Shown here: positions 10,519 to 55,257 of the stretch, piece by piece
Layout of the letters: each line of letters opens with the position of its first letter
How positions within the stretch are numbered: the stretch's first letter is position 1
The notes under the pieces: generated by a model
The model's database searches: none
Told to the model about the DNA's origin: nothing
Seen by the model: only the letters and a program-made list of their open reading frames with translations
Source: Candidatus Beckwithbacteria bacterium GW2011_GWC1_49_16
Lineage (GTDB): Bacteria > Patescibacteriota > Microgenomatia > UBA1400 > CG1-02-47-37
Assembly: GCA_001029675.1 (NCBI GenBank)
Contig: CP011210.1
Coordinates: forward strand, 777,280-841,279
Length of the DNA: 64,000 nucleotides
Direction of reading: 5' to 3'
Program-made: the position numbers and the translations under genes

Positions 10519-11352
10519 ATGCCAACGTGGGTGGTGATGGCGTTTGCGGGAGGGTTTTTGTCGAACCTGGCTTTTTTTGTCACCAGAAAAGCTTTGAAAG
10601 AAGAGGACCCGACGGCTTTCGGCTGGTGGTTTGAGGTGATGCGGCTGGCGGCTTTTAGCGCTTTGGCTTGGTTTAACTTTAAGCTTGAGCTAAGCCCGGC
10701 GGCATTTTTCTGGCTGGCGGCCTTGGGAGTGACGGAAATAGCGGCGATGTACTCTTTTGCCAAGATGCAGAGCTTGACGGAACTGTCGGTGGCCAGCATT
10801 GTGTCCCGCTTGCGGCTGGTGTGGGTGCCTTTAATCGCCTTGGCGGTTTTGGGAGAAAGACTGGCAGTAAGCGAATACCTGGGGATAGCTTTGTTGTTTT
10901 TGGGGTTGTCGGTGGTGGCCTCGCCCAGGAGAATCAGGAACGACTCGGGAATAAAGTACGCCCTGTTTTTTTCGGTGACGGCGGCGGTCAACTCGGTGCT
11001 GATGAAACGAGGTGCCGCTTTTGCCTCGACGCCGGTACTCTTGGCGGCGATGAGCCTGCCGGCCATCTTGGCTTTCCCGGCTTTAATGAAAAGCTCGAAA
11101 ATAAGAATTGCGGCCTCGTTTAAAAAGAGGATTAAGGCCAACCTGGTGTTTTTGGCGTTTAACGTGGTGTCGATGTATCTTTTCGTCGAGGCTTTGAGGG
11201 TCGGCCCTGCCAGTAAAGTGGTTGGTTTTTACCAAAGCATGCTGATTATAGCGGTGATTTTGGGAATTGTGGTCTTAAAAGAAAGAGAGCGGATTGTTAA
11301 AAAAGTCGCCGGAAGTTTGTTGACCCTGGTAGCCATTTGGCTACTGGTTTAG
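10519..11352 (+). CDS. 10-TM membrane protein (DMT/EamA-like), paralog B
   Basis: Clearly alignable to 9122..9961 (AFGWWFEVMRLAAF vs AYAWWFEFLRLVVF; GERL motif). Confidence 0.5.
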   Translation: MPTWVVMAFAGGFLSNLAFFVTRKALKEEDPTAFGWWFEVMRLAAFSALAWFNFKLELSPAAFFWLAALGVTEIAAMYSFAKMQSLTELSVASIVSRLRLVWVPLIALAVLGERLAVSEYLGIALLFLGLSVVASPRRIRNDSGIKYALFFSVTAAVNSVLMKRGAAFASTPVLLAAMSLPAILAFPALMKSSKIRIAASFKKRIKANLVFLAFNVVSMYLFVEALRVGPASKVVGFYQSMLIIAVILGIVVLKERERIVKKVAGSLLTLVAIWLLV

Positions 11353-11445
11353 ATTGGCTAGATAATATCATGTTAAGCTTGACATGTGTTTAACATAATG
11401 TTAACATGTTAAGTGTTTATATATATTTAACATGTTGTTAACATG
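11353..11445 (+). promoter_or_regulatory. AT-rich promoter region with repeated TTAACATGTT palindromes upstream of fic
   Basis: TTGACA at 11379-11384, TAACAT 17 nt downstream. Copies or half-sites of TTAACATG(TT) at about 11371, 11390, 11401-11412 (12-bp perfect palindrome), 11427-11436 and 11437-11444. Confidence 0.5.
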
Positions 11446-27662: not shown

Positions 27663-27733
27663 TGCCGGGTGGTGAAATGGCATCACTGCTGGCTCTGAAC
27701 CAGCCATTCTAGGTTCGAATCCTAGCCCGGCAA
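27663..27733 (+). tRNA. tRNA-Gln (anticodon CTG)
   Basis: Cloverleaf folded by hand: acceptor TGCCGGG/CCCGGCA, D-stem GTGA/TCAC, anticodon loop CTCTGAA, T-arm CTAGG-TTCGAAT-CCTAG. CCA not encoded. Promoter-like TTGTAT...TATAAT upstream. Confidence 0.8.
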
Positions 27734-46926: not shown

Positions 46927-48318
46927 ATGAAGCTTGAGTTGCCGGCTTCGGTAAAAAAAGTCTTAAAGACTTTAGCTGATGCCGGATTTGAAGTTTATAT
47001 TGTGGGCGGGGCGGTGAGGGATATTTTGACCGAAACTGCCGTCACCGACTGGGACTTTACCACTGACGCTAGGCCTGAGGAAATTACCAAGCTTTTTCCT
47101 GACGCTTTTTACGACAACGTCTTTGGCACGGTGGGGGTGGCGGAAGAACACCTCGGAGGCAAAGGCGAGGGTGTTTATGAAATCACTACCTTTAGAACTG
47201 AAAGTGGCTATTCTGATCGCAGACGCCCGGACCAGGTCACTTGGGGCAAATCTTTAGAAGAGGACTTGAAGAGGCGTGACTTTACCATCAATGCCATGGC
47301 TTTGAAAATCCGAAATCCGAAATCCGAAATCCGAAAAAAATTTGAGGCGGAAGTGGTGGATCCTTTTAGGGGAGAAGCCGACCTGCAAAGCAGGTTAATC
47401 CGGGCGGTGGGAGACGCCAACAAAAGGTTTAAGGAAGATGCTTTGCGGATGATGCGGGCGATCAGGATTGGGGCGCAGTTAAAGTTTGCCATTGAAGCGA
47501 AAACTTTGGCGGCGATCAAAAAAGATAGCCGGCTAATTGGTGAAATTGCCGCCGAAAGGATCAGAGACGAACTTTTGAAAATAATCGCCTCCCCTTATCC
47601 TAAGGAAGGAATTTTGCTGATGGCCAACAGCGGATTACTGGCTCAAGTTTTGCCGGAAATAATTCCCATGCGCGGGGTCCAGCAAGGCGGGCACCACACT
47701 AAAGACGTCTGGAATCACTCTTTGGATTCTTTGGCGGCTTGCCCCTCGCCGGACCCGATGGTGAGGCTGGCGACGCTACTTCATGACGTCGGTAAACCTC
47801 AAGTCAAAAAAGACCGGGGACGGGGCAAGGAAATTACTTTTTACAACCACGAGGTGGTGGGGGCGCGGATGACCAAGGTAATTGCCGAAAGACTCAAACT
47901 GTCTAAAAAACAAAAAAATTTGTTGTGGATCCTGGTACGCTGGCACATGTTTGCTTATGAACCGCAGATGACCGACAAGGCTGTAAGACGCTTTATCCGC
48001 CGGGTGGGCCGTGACAATATTAACAAGATGATGATGCTACGAATCGGCGACCGGGTGGGCGGCGGCACCAAGGCTACCTCCTGGAGATTGAGGGAGCTGC
48101 AAGAGCGGATCGGTCAGGTGCTTTACAGCCCGATGGAAATCAAGGACTTAAAGGTGAACGGCCGCGATGTAATGAAGATTTTGGAAATTAAGTCGGGGCC
48201 AAAGGTGGGTGAAATTCTAAAGAAGCTGTTTGACGAGGTGATGGAAGACGCCGGCAAAAACAAGCGCGAGTACTTGCTGAAGCGGATTAAGCAACTCTAT
48301 CACACACCGGGTGTGTGA
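46927..48318 (+). CDS. cca: CCA-adding tRNA nucleotidyltransferase with HD domain
   Basis: Head motif GGAVRD. HD motif LLHDVGKP. The last codons HTPGV* are contributed by a REP element. Confidence 0.8.
   Translation: MKLELPASVKKVLKTLADAGFEVYIVGGAVRDILTETAVTDWDFTTDARPEEITKLFPDAFYDNVFGTVGVAEEHLGGKGEGVYEITTFRTESGYSDRRRPDQVTWGKSLEEDLKRRDFTINAMALKIRNPKSEIRKKFEAEVVDPFRGEADLQSRLIRAVGDANKRFKEDALRMMRAIRIGAQLKFAIEAKTLAAIKKDSRLIGEIAAERIRDELLKIIASPYPKEGILLMANSGLLAQVLPEIIPMRGVQQGGHHTKDVWNHSLDSLAACPSPDPMVRLATLLHDVGKPQVKKDRGRGKEITFYNHEVVGARMTKVIAERLKLSKKQKNLLWILVRWHMFAYEPQMTDKAVRRFIRRVGRDNINKMMMLRIGDRVGGGTKATSWRLRELQERIGQVLYSPMEIKDLKVNGRDVMKILEIKSGPKVGEILKKLFDEVMEDAGKNKREYLLKRIKQLYHTPGV
47308..47335. repeat. 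four tandem heptamers (ATCCGAA)n inside cca coding sequence
   Basis: atccgaa x4 followed by an A7 run. Encodes IRNPKSEIRKK. Confidence 0.8.
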
Positions 48319-48322
48319 TAGG
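48299..48322. repeat. REP-like palindromic element, copy 1
   Basis: atcacacaccgggtgtgtgatagg. Stem ATCACACACC/GGTGTGTGAT. Confidence 0.75.
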
Positions 48323-48327
48323 AGTCA

Positions 48328-49038
48328 CTACCCTGCCTCGGGTTCTTCAAGCAATAAATTTTTAATCCTGGCTAATTCTCTTTGGTAGTCTGCCTGACCA
48401 GAAACAAAGTCCTCGTAACCAGAATTACCCTTAAAATAACTTAATACCAAGTCTTTCTGGCAAAGATTATTTTCAGCTGAACCCAAGTATTCCGGTAATG
48501 AAGAGTGGGGATATTTTTTTAATTCGGTAATCGATTTAACTATTCCGGCGCTATAAGGATTTAAATGAATATATCGGGAAACATGGAGCAGTTGCTCTTC
48601 AGTTTCGACCCTAACCGATTTAAATCTACCTTGGAAAAGAGGTCCGATACGCTTATTTTTAGTGTTGAAATAATGGGCATAACTCTCTGAAAACTTACGA
48701 ATAAATTCTGAAATTCCGTTGTCGGACACTTGCTTCAACAATAAATGAAAATGATTAGGCATGAGGCAGTAGCAGATAATCTCAACTAAATAATTTTTGG
48801 TTTGCTTTAATTGCGATAGTTTTTCAACTTTGGCAGACTGCGGTAAACGAGAAAAGTAAGAATAACGTAACGGTGGGGCCGCGTGTTGATAATATAGCAT
48901 TGCTTCTAAAAAGCGGTTATAGTGGCGACCGTTAACAAAAATTGGCATCGAGGCCACGCCTCGATTAATAATGTGATAAATTTCTCCTGTCACTGAAGGG
49001 TCTTTCCTAGGCGGCATTAACTCTACTCTATCACACAC
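48328..49038 (-). mobile_element. REP-associated tyrosine transposase (RAYT) / IS200-family Y1 HuH transposase gene
   Basis: HuH motif MPNHFHLLL. Catalytic Tyr region SRYIHLNPYSAGIV. AT-rich. Flanked by identical 26-nt REP sequences. Confidence 0.7.
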
Positions 49039-49050
49039 CGGGTGTGTGAT
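49030..49050. repeat. REP-like palindromic element, copy 2
   Basis: actctatcacacaccgggtgtgtgat is identical to copy 1 including the 5' flank. Confidence 0.75.
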
Positions 49051-49921
49051 GTTTGGTTTTAAGCTGCTCCCATAAAACTAATAGAGGGGCGGCGGTAAAG
49101 GTAGATGAGTAAGTGCCGGAGATGGTGCCGATAAGAAGAGTAGCGATAAACCACTTGATGGTGTCCCCGCCCAAAAGGAATAAACTCATCAGCATAAAGA
49201 TTATGGTCAGCGAGTTGTTGATGGAGCGGGCCAGAGTTTGAGTGATCGCCTGGTTGACGACTGAAGCAAAATCTGCCTTGGGCTGGGTTTTAAGATTTTC
49301 CCGAATTCTGTCGTAAACGACGATGGTGTCGTGGACAGAAAAGGAGAGGATGGTGAGAAGAGCGGTGACAAAGAGGGCGTCGACCTCGACGCCGTAAGCG
49401 TAACCCAAGAAACTGAAGCTGCCTAAAATGATAAAAGTATCGTGGAGCATGGCTAAAATGGCACAGACGCCGTATTTTTTGTCCTTAAAGCGAAAGGTAA
49501 CGTAGGCCAGGATGAAACCGGCGGCAAGCAAAAGGCTAACCAGAGTTTTTTTGATCAATTCTTGTCCCAGGGTGGGGCCGATGGTGGCAAAACGCTTTTC
49601 GGTGACGGGCGCGTCAAGCTCGGCCGATAAAAGCTGTTGGAGTTTTAAACTTTGGCTTTGGTCGATGGGGTGGCTTCGCAGTAAAAACGAATTGGGGCCG
49701 GTTTGCTGAAGGCTGGCTAGGTTGATTTGGGGTTCTAGAACCGCTTTGACTTGGGACAGAGTGGCCGACCGGCTGGCGCTAAGTTCGACTTCCAGAAGAG
49801 TGCCGCCGGTAAAGTCGACGGCGGGCTTTAAGCCGAAACGAACCAGAAAATAGGCGCCGGAGAGAATAAAGATGGCGGAAATGAGAAAGTAAACTAGGCG
49901 GTATTTTAAAAAGTTAATCAT
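49031..49921 (-). CDS. secF: protein translocase subunit SecF
   Basis: SecF N-terminus (FLKYRLVYFLIS..., VDFTGGT). C-terminal HHTPGV* comes from the REP. Confidence 0.85.
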   Translation of the reverse strand: MINFLKYRLVYFLISAIFILSGAYFLVRFGLKPAVDFTGGTLLEVELSASRSATLSQVKAVLEPQINLASLQQTGPNSFLLRSHPIDQSQSLKLQQLLSAELDAPVTEKRFATIGPTLGQELIKKTLVSLLLAAGFILAYVTFRFKDKKYGVCAILAMLHDTFIILGSFSFLGYAYGVEVDALFVTALLTILSFSVHDTIVVYDRIRENLKTQPKADFASVVNQAITQTLARSINNSLTIIFMLMSLFLLGGDTIKWFIATLLIGTISGTYSSTFTAAPLLVLWEQLKTKHHTPGV

Positions 49922-51227: not shown

Positions 51228-51422
51228 TTAGTTTGACTTTTTTGCCAGCGAACCGGTAAGTGATAATTGCTTGGCACCTTTGAAACCGTAAATTATCTGG
51301 CCGGTTTCTAAAATGGTTTTGACCGAGACCGAGTCACCTTTGGTGACGCCCACAGCCTTGACAAACTGGGAGGGAACGGTGACTCCCAGGCTGTTGCCGA
51401 CCTTGATCACTTTTTGCTTCAT
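51228..51422 (-). CDS. AbrB/MazE-like small DNA-binding protein
   Basis: VIKVGNSLGVTVPSQFVKAVGV swapped-hairpin motif. 64 aa. Immediately upstream of secD. Confidence 0.45.
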   Translation of the reverse strand: MKQKVIKVGNSLGVTVPSQFVKAVGVTKGDSVSVKTILETGQIIYGFKGAKQLSLTGSLAKKSN

Positions 51423-54066: not shown

Positions 54067-54312
54067 ATGGCCAAAAGAAGAACCAGGGAACAAAAAATAA
54101 AAGCCAAACAGAGGCTGGTCTACAGCCTGCCGGAAGCAGCGGAAGAGGCGGAGGAAGTTAAGGCCGAGGCGACGGAAACGGCCGAGCCGATGGAGACAAA
54201 TCAGGAGCAAAGACGGCTGGTTTTAGGCGACCTGAAACGAACCGGAGTGATTTTTTTGGTGATGCTAGCGCTTCTGGCCGCGGCTTACTGGTTTCTTAAC
54301 ATCACACCTTAG
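54067..54312 (+). CDS. small basic protein with C-terminal TM helix
   Basis: ORF. The last codons ITP* are encoded by a REP-like element. Confidence 0.3.
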   Translation: MAKRRTREQKIKAKQRLVYSLPEAAEEAEEVKAEATETAEPMETNQEQRRLVLGDLKRTGVIFLVMLALLAAAYWFLNITP

Positions 54313-54324
54313 AGGTGTGATAGG
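54301..54324. repeat. REP-like element, variant copy 4
   Basis: atcacaccttagaggtgtgatagg. Same stem arms and TAGG tail, different loop. Confidence 0.55.
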
Positions 54325-54341
54325 GATGATAGAAAATGACT

Positions 54342-55202
54342 TTATTTTTTAATTACCTGGTAAATGCTAAACAAAATCAGCCCGCCGCCGAAGGCTTGAG
54401 CCAAGGTGAGAGTTTCTTGGAGCAAGGCCATTGATAAAGCAGTAGAAACAATCGGGTATGATAAAGCGGTAACGGCTGACTGGGAAGGACCGATGGTGTC
54501 GACGGCTTTGTACCAGAAAATTAAAGCAGCCCAGATGAACACGCCGGAAACAATCACCCAAAAGCCGATGCTGGGATTGATGCTGGGGAAACCACCAAGA
54601 AAAAAGGCAGAAACGACCAAGGCAATGGCCCCAATGACATTTCTTAAATAAGAAAATAACTCGCCGCCGGTCTCTCTGATAGGCAATTTGGATAGGGCGT
54701 TGTTAAAGCTAAAGATAACGCTGGAGATAATGATGAGAAAATCCCCTAACTTGGGAACGACTCTACCCAAACCTACGGTTAACAGGTAGACACCGACAAC
54801 CATTATAAGAATAAACCAATATTTTCTTTTAGAAAATTTTTCTCTTAAAAGAAGCGAACTAAAAGGCAAAACTAGAAACAATGATAAGGTAACTAAAAAA
54901 CCGGCGTTGATGGCGGTAGTAAATCTTTGACCCCAGAAGAGAAAAAAGTAAGCCACCGCACCGGAACCGACACCGACAACTAAAATCTGCCACCAGGATG
55001 CTCGGGAAATTCCCTTAAGCTTCGAGAATGATTTAATAATAAAGGGCAGACCGAGTAAGGCGGCAACACTAGTGGCCACAGTGGTGTACTGGAAAGAAGT
55101 TAATGAAGAGGTGTTTAAGCCGATCTTGTTGACTACCAAGCTGGCGCCAAAAATTACAGCAGAAAGAAAACCGTAAGTGTAGTTTCTGAAAACACCAGTC
55201 AT
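54342..55202 (-). CDS. DMT/EamA-family 10-TM transporter
   Basis: Two 5-TM halves. Bracketed by REP copies 3 and 4. Confidence 0.5.
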   Translation of the reverse strand: MTGVFRNYTYGFLSAVIFGASLVVNKIGLNTSSLTSFQYTTVATSVAALLGLPFIIKSFSKLKGISRASWWQILVVGVGSGAVAYFFLFWGQRFTTAINAGFLVTLSLFLVLPFSSLLLREKFSKRKYWFILIMVVGVYLLTVGLGRVVPKLGDFLIIISSVIFSFNNALSKLPIRETGGELFSYLRNVIGAIALVVSAFFLGGFPSINPSIGFWVIVSGVFIWAALIFWYKAVDTIGPSQSAVTALSYPIVSTALSMALLQETLTLAQAFGGGLILFSIYQVIKK

Positions 55203-55233: not shown

Positions 55234-55257
55234 AATCACATACCGGGTGTGTGATAG
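55234..55257. repeat. REP-like palindromic element, copy 3
   Basis: atcacataccgggtgtgtgatagg, 1 mismatch to copy 1. Confidence 0.7.

Follow-up and report, generated by a model that had tools for sequence, protein, structure and literature searches.

The window analyzed here is a stretch of 64,000 nucleotides (nt) from Candidatus Beckwithbacteria bacterium GW2011_GWC1_49_16 (contig CP011210.1, positions 777,280 to 841,279), and the positions given below are those within it. Between the convergent genes cca (plus strand) and secF (minus strand), as the preliminary description of this DNA had stated, lies a gene of the type of the RAYTs, tyrosine transposases associated with repetitive extragenic palindromes (REPs). 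The gene is located downstream of secF on the same strand, faces cca, and is the last gene on its strand after secD-secF. We regard the locus, with a probability of roughly 80%, as a REPtron-like unit, in which a resident single-copy RAYT-type Y1 HUH gene is bracketed by two cognate hairpins that also occur as solo copies elsewhere. The unit and its surroundings comprise the following features.

48328..49017, minus strand: RAYT-like Y1 HUH gene, 229 amino acids (open reading frame (ORF), homologue alignment, Pfam, and AlphaFold/4ER8)
48745..48756, minus strand: HUH motif N88-H89-F90-H91 (NHFH), read from the sequence; N88, H89, and H91 invariant
48556..48573, minus strand: catalytic tyrosine motif Y149-I-H-L-N-P with the class 2 signature Y---NP; Y149, H151, N153, and P154 invariant
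48294..48319, plus strand: REP downstream of the RAYT gene, ACTCT plus a 21-nt core (48299-48319); the palindrome reaches 48297-48321 and holds the TGA stop of cca
49025..49050, plus strand: REP upstream of the RAYT gene, the identical 26 nt with its core at 49030-49050; it holds the TGA stop of secF (minus strand)
55235..55255, plus strand: solo REP of type A in which a single mismatch produces a G-T pair, in the intergenic space separating an EamA-type gene from an M29 peptidase gene
54301..54321, plus strand: type B hairpin ATCACACC-TTAGA-GGTGTGAT between convergent genes, providing the TAG stop of an 81-amino-acid ORF at 54067-54312
46927..48318, plus strand: cca, tRNA nucleotidyltransferase (context); the REP supplies its stop and the codons for the final ...YHTPGV
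49031..49921, minus strand: secF (context); here too the stop and the codons for the final ...HHTPGV come from the REP

The preliminary description had taken the gene to be an ORF of 236 amino acids at 48328..49038 on the minus strand. This ORF exists, but the N-terminal sequence M1-P2-x-R4 was invariant in an alignment of 36 homologues; therefore, the ATG at 49017, giving 229 amino acids, was adopted as the start instead of the GTG at 49038, which falls within the upstream hairpin. The 236-amino-acid call from the GTG in the hairpin appears in several pipelines (JGI and ENA), whereas NCBI and the homologue alignment back the 229-amino-acid protein.

The Pfam search proposed in the preliminary description matched the protein to Y1_Tnp (PF01797) with 39.7 bits against a cutoff of 23, which placed it in the Y1 HUH superfamily. 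Its sole meaningful match in NCBIfam was REP_Tyr_transpos (NF047646), with an E-value of 3e-16 and 59.7 bits over profile positions 41-145 only (the second half), and all 36 family members matched the same model (best E-value, 4e-17). The NCBIfam model for IS200 (transpos_IS200) missed the window protein and touched 6 of the 36 family members weakly. Both motifs named previously, HUH (NHFH) and the tyrosine motif, were found, and N88, H89, and H91 of the former and Y149, H151, N153, and P154 of the latter were invariant in the 36 sequences. The tyrosine motif YIHLNP had the Y---NP form by which class 2 RAYTs (TnpA_REP) are told from the IS200 transposases with Y---Q (PMC6006769).

An AlphaFold model built from the alignment had a predicted local distance difference test score (pLDDT) of 89.4 and a predicted template modelling score (pTM) of 0.85. 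The best Foldseek match in the Protein Data Bank (PDB) was 4ER8, Escherichia coli TnpA_REP with its REP hairpin (E-value, 8e-8; template modelling (TM) score, 0.74 on the target), and the transposases of IS608, ISDra2, and IS200 gave E-values of approximately 6e-4 to 1e-3; the Foldseek probability was 1.00 for 4ER8, 2A6O, 2XMA, and 2F4F. The Y1 enzymes were ranked in the same way by a sequence search of the PDB, with E-values of 0.011 for 4ER8 and 0.6 for ISDra2. Two parts were additional to the minimal Y1 core, one a helical segment at approximately residues 43-75, the other a C-terminal domain at approximately residues 160-224, which is conserved and helical and has a YPxSS motif. In the 36 family members, no helix-turn-helix (HTH) family of Pfam (Bac_DnaA_C, HTH_23, or HTH_28) matched at E <=1, and no other domain was detected. 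The family is large, and its named top matches were all from Microgenomates. These results supported the assignment of the window protein to the Y1 HUH enzymes and its placement nearer to the REP-associated tyrosine transposases than to the IS200 transposases.

The sequence that flanks the gene on both sides is the 26-mer ACTCTATCACACACCGGGTGTGTGAT, which was confirmed to be identical at 48294-48319 and 49025-49050, in the same orientation. One copy begins 8 nt past the stop codon of the RAYT gene, and the core of the other lies 12 nt ahead of its ATG. The 21-nt core, ATCACACACCGGGTGTGTGAT, is palindromic apart from the central base; this type A core is also designated the ATCACACACC core. When the window was shuffled 100 times, the core was matched 0 times. 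A stem of 10 base pairs (bp) had been reported for the hairpin; the palindrome does fold, but as single-stranded DNA the core forms a perfect 9-bp stem with a 3-nt loop, and pairing in the downstream (left) copy extends to about 13-14 pairs. The fold energies were -11 kcal/mol (z = -5.4) for the copy at 48294 and -8 kcal/mol (z = -4.5) for the copy at 49025, with z-scores of -4.5 to -5.5 overall. The stops of both cca and secF are inside the palindromes, and both proteins terminate in ...HTPGV*.

The repeat was not confined to the two flanks. A third copy with one mismatch was present at 55235-55255, which folded more weakly (-4.7 kcal/mol; z = -1.8), and no degenerate copies were found in the window up to 5 mismatches, the type B hairpin at 54301 being the sole addition at 6. 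The window thus held one solo copy and one related hairpin per 64 kb, and the copy count for this species covers the 64-kb window and the loci that overlap it. Type B has the same basal stem as type A and a different apex. Type B hairpins flank related RAYT genes (L062, and downstream of the gene in L011/L137; related loci are designated here by L numbers), and they are multi-copy in Amesbacteria MEXE01. In the window, the type B hairpin at 54301 and the type A copy at 55235 bracket the EamA-type gene (54342-55202). Both this gene and the M29 peptidase gene were absent from the syntenic region of L053, which indicated that these hairpins are located in a variable stretch.

The nucleotides beside the core were also compared. 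At position -1 on the strand with the central G, 61 copies had T in 36 cases, C in 18, and G in 1, and a pyrimidine was found there on both strands. CT was the commonest dinucleotide directly 5' of the core (21 of 61 copies), and CT preceded every intact RAYT-flanking copy as read on the plus strand of the window. The 5' flanks in the window were ACTCT, ACTCT, and CAATA on one strand and CTCCT, CAAAC, and CCCCT on the other. The flank CTCT recurred in copies of L006, L013, L027, L028, and L038; ACTCT was therefore regarded as part of the repeat unit and not as a target duplication. In the window, the copies were singlets in the same orientation, with none of the inverted doublets known as REPINs or BIMEs, and pairs of hairpins were seen occasionally outside it, for example in L009 at 2392/2576.

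To follow the core beyond this genome, one genome per species was scanned; as metagenome-assembled genomes (MAGs) are fragmented, the counts per MAG are likely to be underestimates. The exact core was found in 46 stretches from approximately 20 MAGs, mostly without a nearby RAYT gene, so that solo hairpins outnumbered the gene-linked ones. The carriers were labelled as Beckwith-, Ames-, and Gottesmanbacteria, Microgenomates, and 'Patescibacteria group', with a few doubtful labels. Amesbacteria MEXE01 had 12 exact copies, JAHJSD01 and CAZFAN01 had 6 each, and CAZYUF01 and PFMK01 had 4 each; over the MAGs outside the window genome, the range was 2 to 12 exact copies, mostly solo. The repeat is dispersed, in tens of copies at most and not hundreds. 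Among 63 copies, 10 provided the stop of an ORF of at least 80 codons and 53 did not, which indicated that the repeat is mainly extragenic. Further copies near RAYT genes were rare, with 7 in 300 kb, which is of the same order of magnitude as in the window. In JAHJSD01 (L021, L030, L040, L041, and L046) the core lies within a longer repeated unit, ATCACACACCGGGTGTGTGATAGGTTGACACCTCGGGAATT, and in L036 the core recurs in partial tandem copies; both are composite arrangements.

The association of gene and hairpin was not peculiar to the window. The same core, or a degenerate copy, lay tightly on both sides of the RAYT homologues in L009, L012, L033, L050, and L053. In L011, the type A core was present upstream only, and downstream was a type-B-like hairpin, ATCACACC-TCTAA-GGTGAAAT (L011 1063-1090; L137 downstream of 3690). 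This suggested that one enzyme may use hairpins of types A and B, or that the B hairpin of L011/L137 is a decayed copy. For an unbiased sample, 80 metagenome loci were fetched by protein similarity alone (33-62% identity), of which 67 had sufficient flanking sequence. An exact word of at least 12 nt (median, 17) was common to the upstream and downstream flanks in 58 of these 67 loci, compared with 5 of 300 pairs of flanks from different loci and 0 of 60 displaced positions in the same loci. Nearly all of the shared words were short, lineage-specific palindromes, such as TTCCACC-TCTAA-GGTGGAA, TACACC-TCCGA-GGTGTA, TGTACACC-TGAGA-GGTGTACA, and GAAGTCCGACTTC, and the two copies were direct or inverted depending on the locus. 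Sister RAYT proteins tended to have the same hairpin type. Hairpins of the form CACC-TCTAA-GGTG flanked the RAYTs of a complete genome of Levybacteria (L052) and of a Woesebacteria homologue (L147). Across the family, a RAYT gene is characteristically flanked by its cognate palindrome.

The window contained a single Y1 gene. Contigs encoding exactly the Cca protein of the window (24) or exactly its SecF protein (24) all had the gene in the same neighbourhood, and an empty site, with cca beside secF and the gene missing, was not found among these 24 + 24 contigs. The order secD-secF-hairpin-RAYT-hairpin-cca-recJ was held in four species (the window, L011 (= L137), L033, and L053), among which pairwise identities were 66-72% for the RAYT, 65-77% for Cca, 65-87% for SecF, and 48-64% for RecJ. 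The hairpin-encoded SecF tail HHTPGV was common to the window, L011, and L053, indicating that the hairpin at the end of secF predates the split of these three species. Homologues P0010 and P0068 (Woesebacteria) each occupied one locus across many samples, and one Gottesmanbacteria MAG had two RAYT genes, 41% identical, each with its own hairpin. These observations supported the conclusion that the RAYT gene behaves as a single-copy fixed resident and not as an insertion sequence (IS). L011 was syntenic with the Beckwithbacteria-type window at approximately 69% protein identity; titles such as 'uncultured Pseudomonadales' or 'Gammaproteobacteria', carried by CAZYUF01 (L007, L011, L027, L028) and other third-party annotation (TPA) MAGs, look wrong. 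In L053, an HTH_3/Gp49 toxin-antitoxin-like pair (10772-11378) was inserted between the downstream hairpin and cca.

Some observations point to movement of the hairpins. In the species of L011, L028, and L137, a REP was located exactly at the junction of secD and secF (L028 7421-7441; L137 2055-2075), and SecD of this species reads through the junction hairpin with approximately 13 extra residues; in the window and L053, secD and secF overlap with no hairpin there. At least one REP, that at the secD/secF junction of L028/L137, is thus a new insertion specific to its lineage. Solo copies were also found at non-homologous places, one in the window (55235) beside genes with no counterpart in L053 and one in L053 (3170) beside a gene absent from the window. 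Viral contigs gave 0 matches to the core and one distant (33%) relative of the protein, and phage-borne spread was rejected on these grounds.

Together, the intact motifs and protein matches, the repeats on both sides of the gene in the window, in its orthologues, and in most of the sampled relatives, the solo copies, and the fixed, single-copy gene with no near-identical paralogues upheld the earlier proposal of a RAYT flanked by REPs. TnpA_REP, IS608, and ISDra2 enzymes bind a folded single-stranded DNA hairpin, cleave by means of a tyrosine with a 5'-phosphotyrosine intermediate, and transfer the strand. By analogy with the TnpA_REP proteins of E. coli, Stenotrophomonas maltophilia, and Marinomonas and with the IS608 TnpA, the window enzyme would bind the folded hairpin on single-stranded DNA, its presumed substrate. 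Cleavage beside the hairpin through Tyr149 would form a 5'-phosphotyrosine link, histidines 89 and 91 would hold the metal, and the strand would be rejoined elsewhere, whereby copies of the hairpin could be spread or reshuffled while the gene stays put. We infer the same chemistry from the intact fold, the preserved catalytic residues, and the fact that every lineage of the enzyme is accompanied by a hairpin of its own; mobilization of the hairpins by this enzyme is probable on the same analogy. For TnpA_REP, cleavage takes place at CT, on the 5' or the 3' side of the REP, and dependence on the GTAG foot and the loop bases varies (PMC8266576). The CT beside the core may mark a cleavage site here, as a lead only. 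Since GTAG is missing, recognition must rest on the stem and the loop, perhaps with the pyrimidine-rich foot.

Several points weigh against this interpretation. The 59.7 bits obtained with NF047646 are under the equivalog cutoff of 80 bits of that model, and the nuclease activity is a prediction from sequence, modelled structure, and analogy. The foot GT[AG]G, which the characterized TnpA_REP enzymes require, was not found 0-2 nt 5' of the hairpin in the window copies. The copy number is low, at about one solo copy per 40-60 kb, and no within-species polymorphism of insertion or excision was observed among the 24 + 24 contigs. By housekeeping genes, L011 and L053 are the closest pair among the four species, but not by the RAYT, and strict vertical descent is therefore not proven. 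The GC content at third codon positions (GC3) of the gene is low, although the locus is old and fixed. The gene is AT-rich, as had been noted, with 38.6% GC and 36.5% GC3 against 50-54% and 59-66% in its neighbours. RAYT genes were AT-richer than the host DNA at 42 of 44 related loci, by a mean of 6 percentage points and with a correlation of r = 0.75 with the host GC content; AT-richness as a sign of recent transfer was rejected, as it is a family-wide offset that follows the host GC.

The strong compositional contrast with the neighbours would be expected if the whole 757-bp hairpin-tnpA-hairpin unit (48294-49050) were an autonomous IS of the IS200/IS605 type, mobile and recently acquired from an AT-rich donor. 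The hairpins are direct and on the same strand, as at the left and right ends of IS200/IS605 elements, one MAG assembly breaks exactly at both of them, and precise excision would leave one hairpin still supplying the stops of both neighbours. The offset in composition, however, extends through the family, and the unit has none of the marks of IS200/IS605 membership, namely several near-identical copies, Y---Q, a match to transpos_IS200, and often tnpB: there is one copy in the window, the tyrosine motif is Y---NP, and the window ORF list showed no tnpB-like ORF beside the gene. All of the 24 + 24 contigs have the gene in the same neighbourhood with no empty site, and in four species the gene sits at this locus with a divergence like that of its neighbours, as P0068 of Woesebacteria likewise sits at one fixed locus. 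Solo hairpins are more numerous than gene-linked ones, and nothing was found on viral contigs. We consider such an element very unlikely. That the 26-mers are a duplication formed when a gene functionally unrelated to the hairpins inserted into a single pre-existing palindrome is harder still to credit. The identity does run 5 nt past the palindrome (ACTCT) at both copies, and an ancestor with a single hairpin would have kept both neighbouring stops. The transposition of IS200/IS605 Y1 elements, however, produces no target duplication, and matching palindromes lie on both sides in 58 of 67 unrelated family members, some direct and some inverted, which cannot all be insertion duplications. With these flank statistics and the recurrent CTCT 5' of the copies in five other loci, a target-site duplication was rejected as the origin of the 26-mer.

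A different possibility is that the palindromes are primarily host elements, such as 3'-end stabilizers, terminators, or protein sites, and that the Y1 protein has been domesticated and acts there for the host without copying them. Copies lie at the 3' ends of genes and between convergent genes, the system persists in very small genomes at a fixed locus, and host roles have been published for REPs. Moreover, the 21-nt core is invariant across genomes whose RAYTs are 38-45% identical, a sign that the DNA or RNA itself may be under strong purifying selection. On the other side, most copies have no T-run after the stem, and the Rfam search of the window gave no match at the hairpins. The sequence of the hairpin shifts with the RAYT lineage, as for an enzyme-substrate pair, and a new insertion has occurred at the secD/secF junction. 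As an account that replaces mobilization we find this improbable, if somewhat less so than the autonomous element; it is also compatible with the REPtron-like interpretation, as exaptation and mobilization can coexist.

The REPtron-like unit was compared with known systems. The protein shares the HUH and Y---NP motifs with E. coli TnpA_REP (RayT/YafM; Bertels Group 2, Quentin subclass 2.2; 4ER8), and the arrangement is like that of the E. coli REPtron in its single-copy gene, its own flanking hairpins, and a repeat dispersed in intergenic DNA. Identity in the structural alignment was 14%, however; in the window protein, approximately 33 additional residues (43-75) lie between helix 1 and strand 2, and a helical C-terminal domain of approximately 70 residues is present as well. 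Canonical REPs (groups 2 and 3; subclasses 2.2, 2.4, 2.5, 2.7, and 2.8) have GT[AG]G near the foot of the hairpin. The window hairpin has a perfect, bulge-free 9-bp stem, lacks the GTAG foot that is indispensable to the E. coli enzyme, and occurs in a handful of copies, in contrast to hundreds in E. coli, with no BIME/REPIN doublets. Its shape is closer to the short perfect palindromic REPs of the Group 3/subclass 2.5 RAYTs (Pseudomonas, Stenotrophomonas, and Marinomonas); the REP of S. maltophilia, with an 8-bp perfect stem and a 3-nt loop, has nearly the same architecture, and CT, the cleavage dinucleotide of Group 3, is the commonest 5' dinucleotide here. However, the motifs of that group are DH[LF]H, WQ, and YI[VI]ANP, as compared with NHFH, FQ, and YIHLNP here, and its GTAG, very high copy numbers, and REPIN doublets were not seen. 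The unit therefore does not qualify as a canonical REPtron of group 2 or group 3.

The nearest likeness was to Quentin subclass 2.1/Bertels Group 1, which consists largely of the TIRYT/TIRtron type, where TIR stands for terminal inverted repeat. Its published signature, NH[YF]H, FQ, Y[IV]HLNP, and an 'SS' tail motif (Quentin et al. 2018, Table 1; PMC6006769), is present as NHFH, F128-Q129, YIHLNP, and S172-S173, an assignment by signature only. The median length of subclass 2.1 proteins is 238 amino acids against 229 here, both are low-copy genes, and the flanking repeat families of Group 1 are small, as here, its 16-mers occurring approximately 12 times on average. The differences concern the surroundings and the C terminus: beside subclass 2.1 genes, Quentin et al. 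2018 (PMC6006769) found no REP-like structures, whereas hairpins on both sides are the rule here, and the subclass is reported to carry a C-terminal HTH, none of which was detected in the 36 members. Some TIRs are self-complementary (Di Nocera et al. 2013), which is a further likeness; their consensus, GGGGWSAS, is not matched by the hairpin. Reports of Group 1/subclass 2.1 concern Proteobacteria and further cultured phyla and do not extend to the candidate phyla radiation (CPR). With the IS200/IS605 TnpA proteins (IS608, ISDra2, and IS200), the window protein shares the Y1 HUH fold and a gene bounded by same-strand hairpins; it differs from them in Y---NP instead of Y---Q, the fixed single copy, the solo hairpins, the lack of tnpB, and the unmatched IS200 model. 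The family thus combines a REPtron-like organization with properties unreported for subclass 2.1. What makes the unit atypical is the missing GTAG foot, the small number of copies, the hairpins that are single and directly oriented, and the use of one identical core by three RAYT lineages.

The last of these features concerns lineages far apart. One identical core flanks the RAYTs of three lineages, of the Beckwith-, Ames-, and Gottesmanbacteria types, which are mutually 38-45% identical, and each of the three has closer relatives (up to 55%) with other hairpins. The tree used to compare hairpin types was a plain neighbour-joining tree with no support values, and pairwise identities were relied on instead. 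We propose tentatively, and with more doubt than confidence, that the 21-nt hairpin is an ultra-conserved repeat across Microgenomates, one core serving at least three diverged RAYT lineages. If this is true, the partnership of hairpin and enzyme may have been frozen over a very deep divergence by a host function, for example at gene 3' ends (the SecF and Cca tails and stops), or, alternatively, the hairpin family may have spread horizontally, recruiting unrelated resident enzymes. In either case, it would contrast with the proteobacterial REPs, which are described in the literature as species-specific, and REP-RAYT would be a regular, maintained feature of minimal symbiont genomes.

Work on REP/RAYT systems has been limited almost entirely to proteobacteria, with a small number of further cultured phyla. 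The genomes of CPR bacteria are approximately 1 Mb in size, with very little intergenic DNA and strong streamlining. The preliminary description knew of no characterized REP/RAYT system in CPR-type genomes, and no description of one in CPR bacteria was found in the papers that we searched. The present genes apparently represent a divergent, undescribed REP/RAYT-like family common in Microgenomates-type bacteria, and the architecture of REP/RAYT systems is shown here to be common in a large Y1 family of CPR bacteria. Its persistence in streamlined genomes bears on the question of a tolerated parasite versus a host benefit. Given the subclass 2.1/Group 1 signature together with hairpins, the family may link the TIRYT-type and REP-type systems, and one core with deeply diverged enzymes offers a natural experiment on how Y1 enzymes read a hairpin with no GTAG guide. 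In practical terms, assemblies break at the hairpins, annotated ORFs (SecF, Cca, and SecD) are lengthened or ended by them, and start-codon calls are misled. In L003 (GCA_003510465.1; 1-33 and 752-865), the contig opens at the upstream hairpin and an N run lies at the downstream hairpin, which indicated that the repeat breaks short-read assemblies.

A further hairpin with a T-run lies inside the RAYT gene at 48947-48965; orthologues do not keep it, and it was treated as a chance occurrence. Elsewhere in the window, a tRNA gene at 27663-27733 was the sole Rfam match. Immediately upstream of secD, a gene for a 64-amino-acid MazE/AbrB-like protein (51228-51422, minus strand) was kept in every syntenic locus (L001, L053, and L137).

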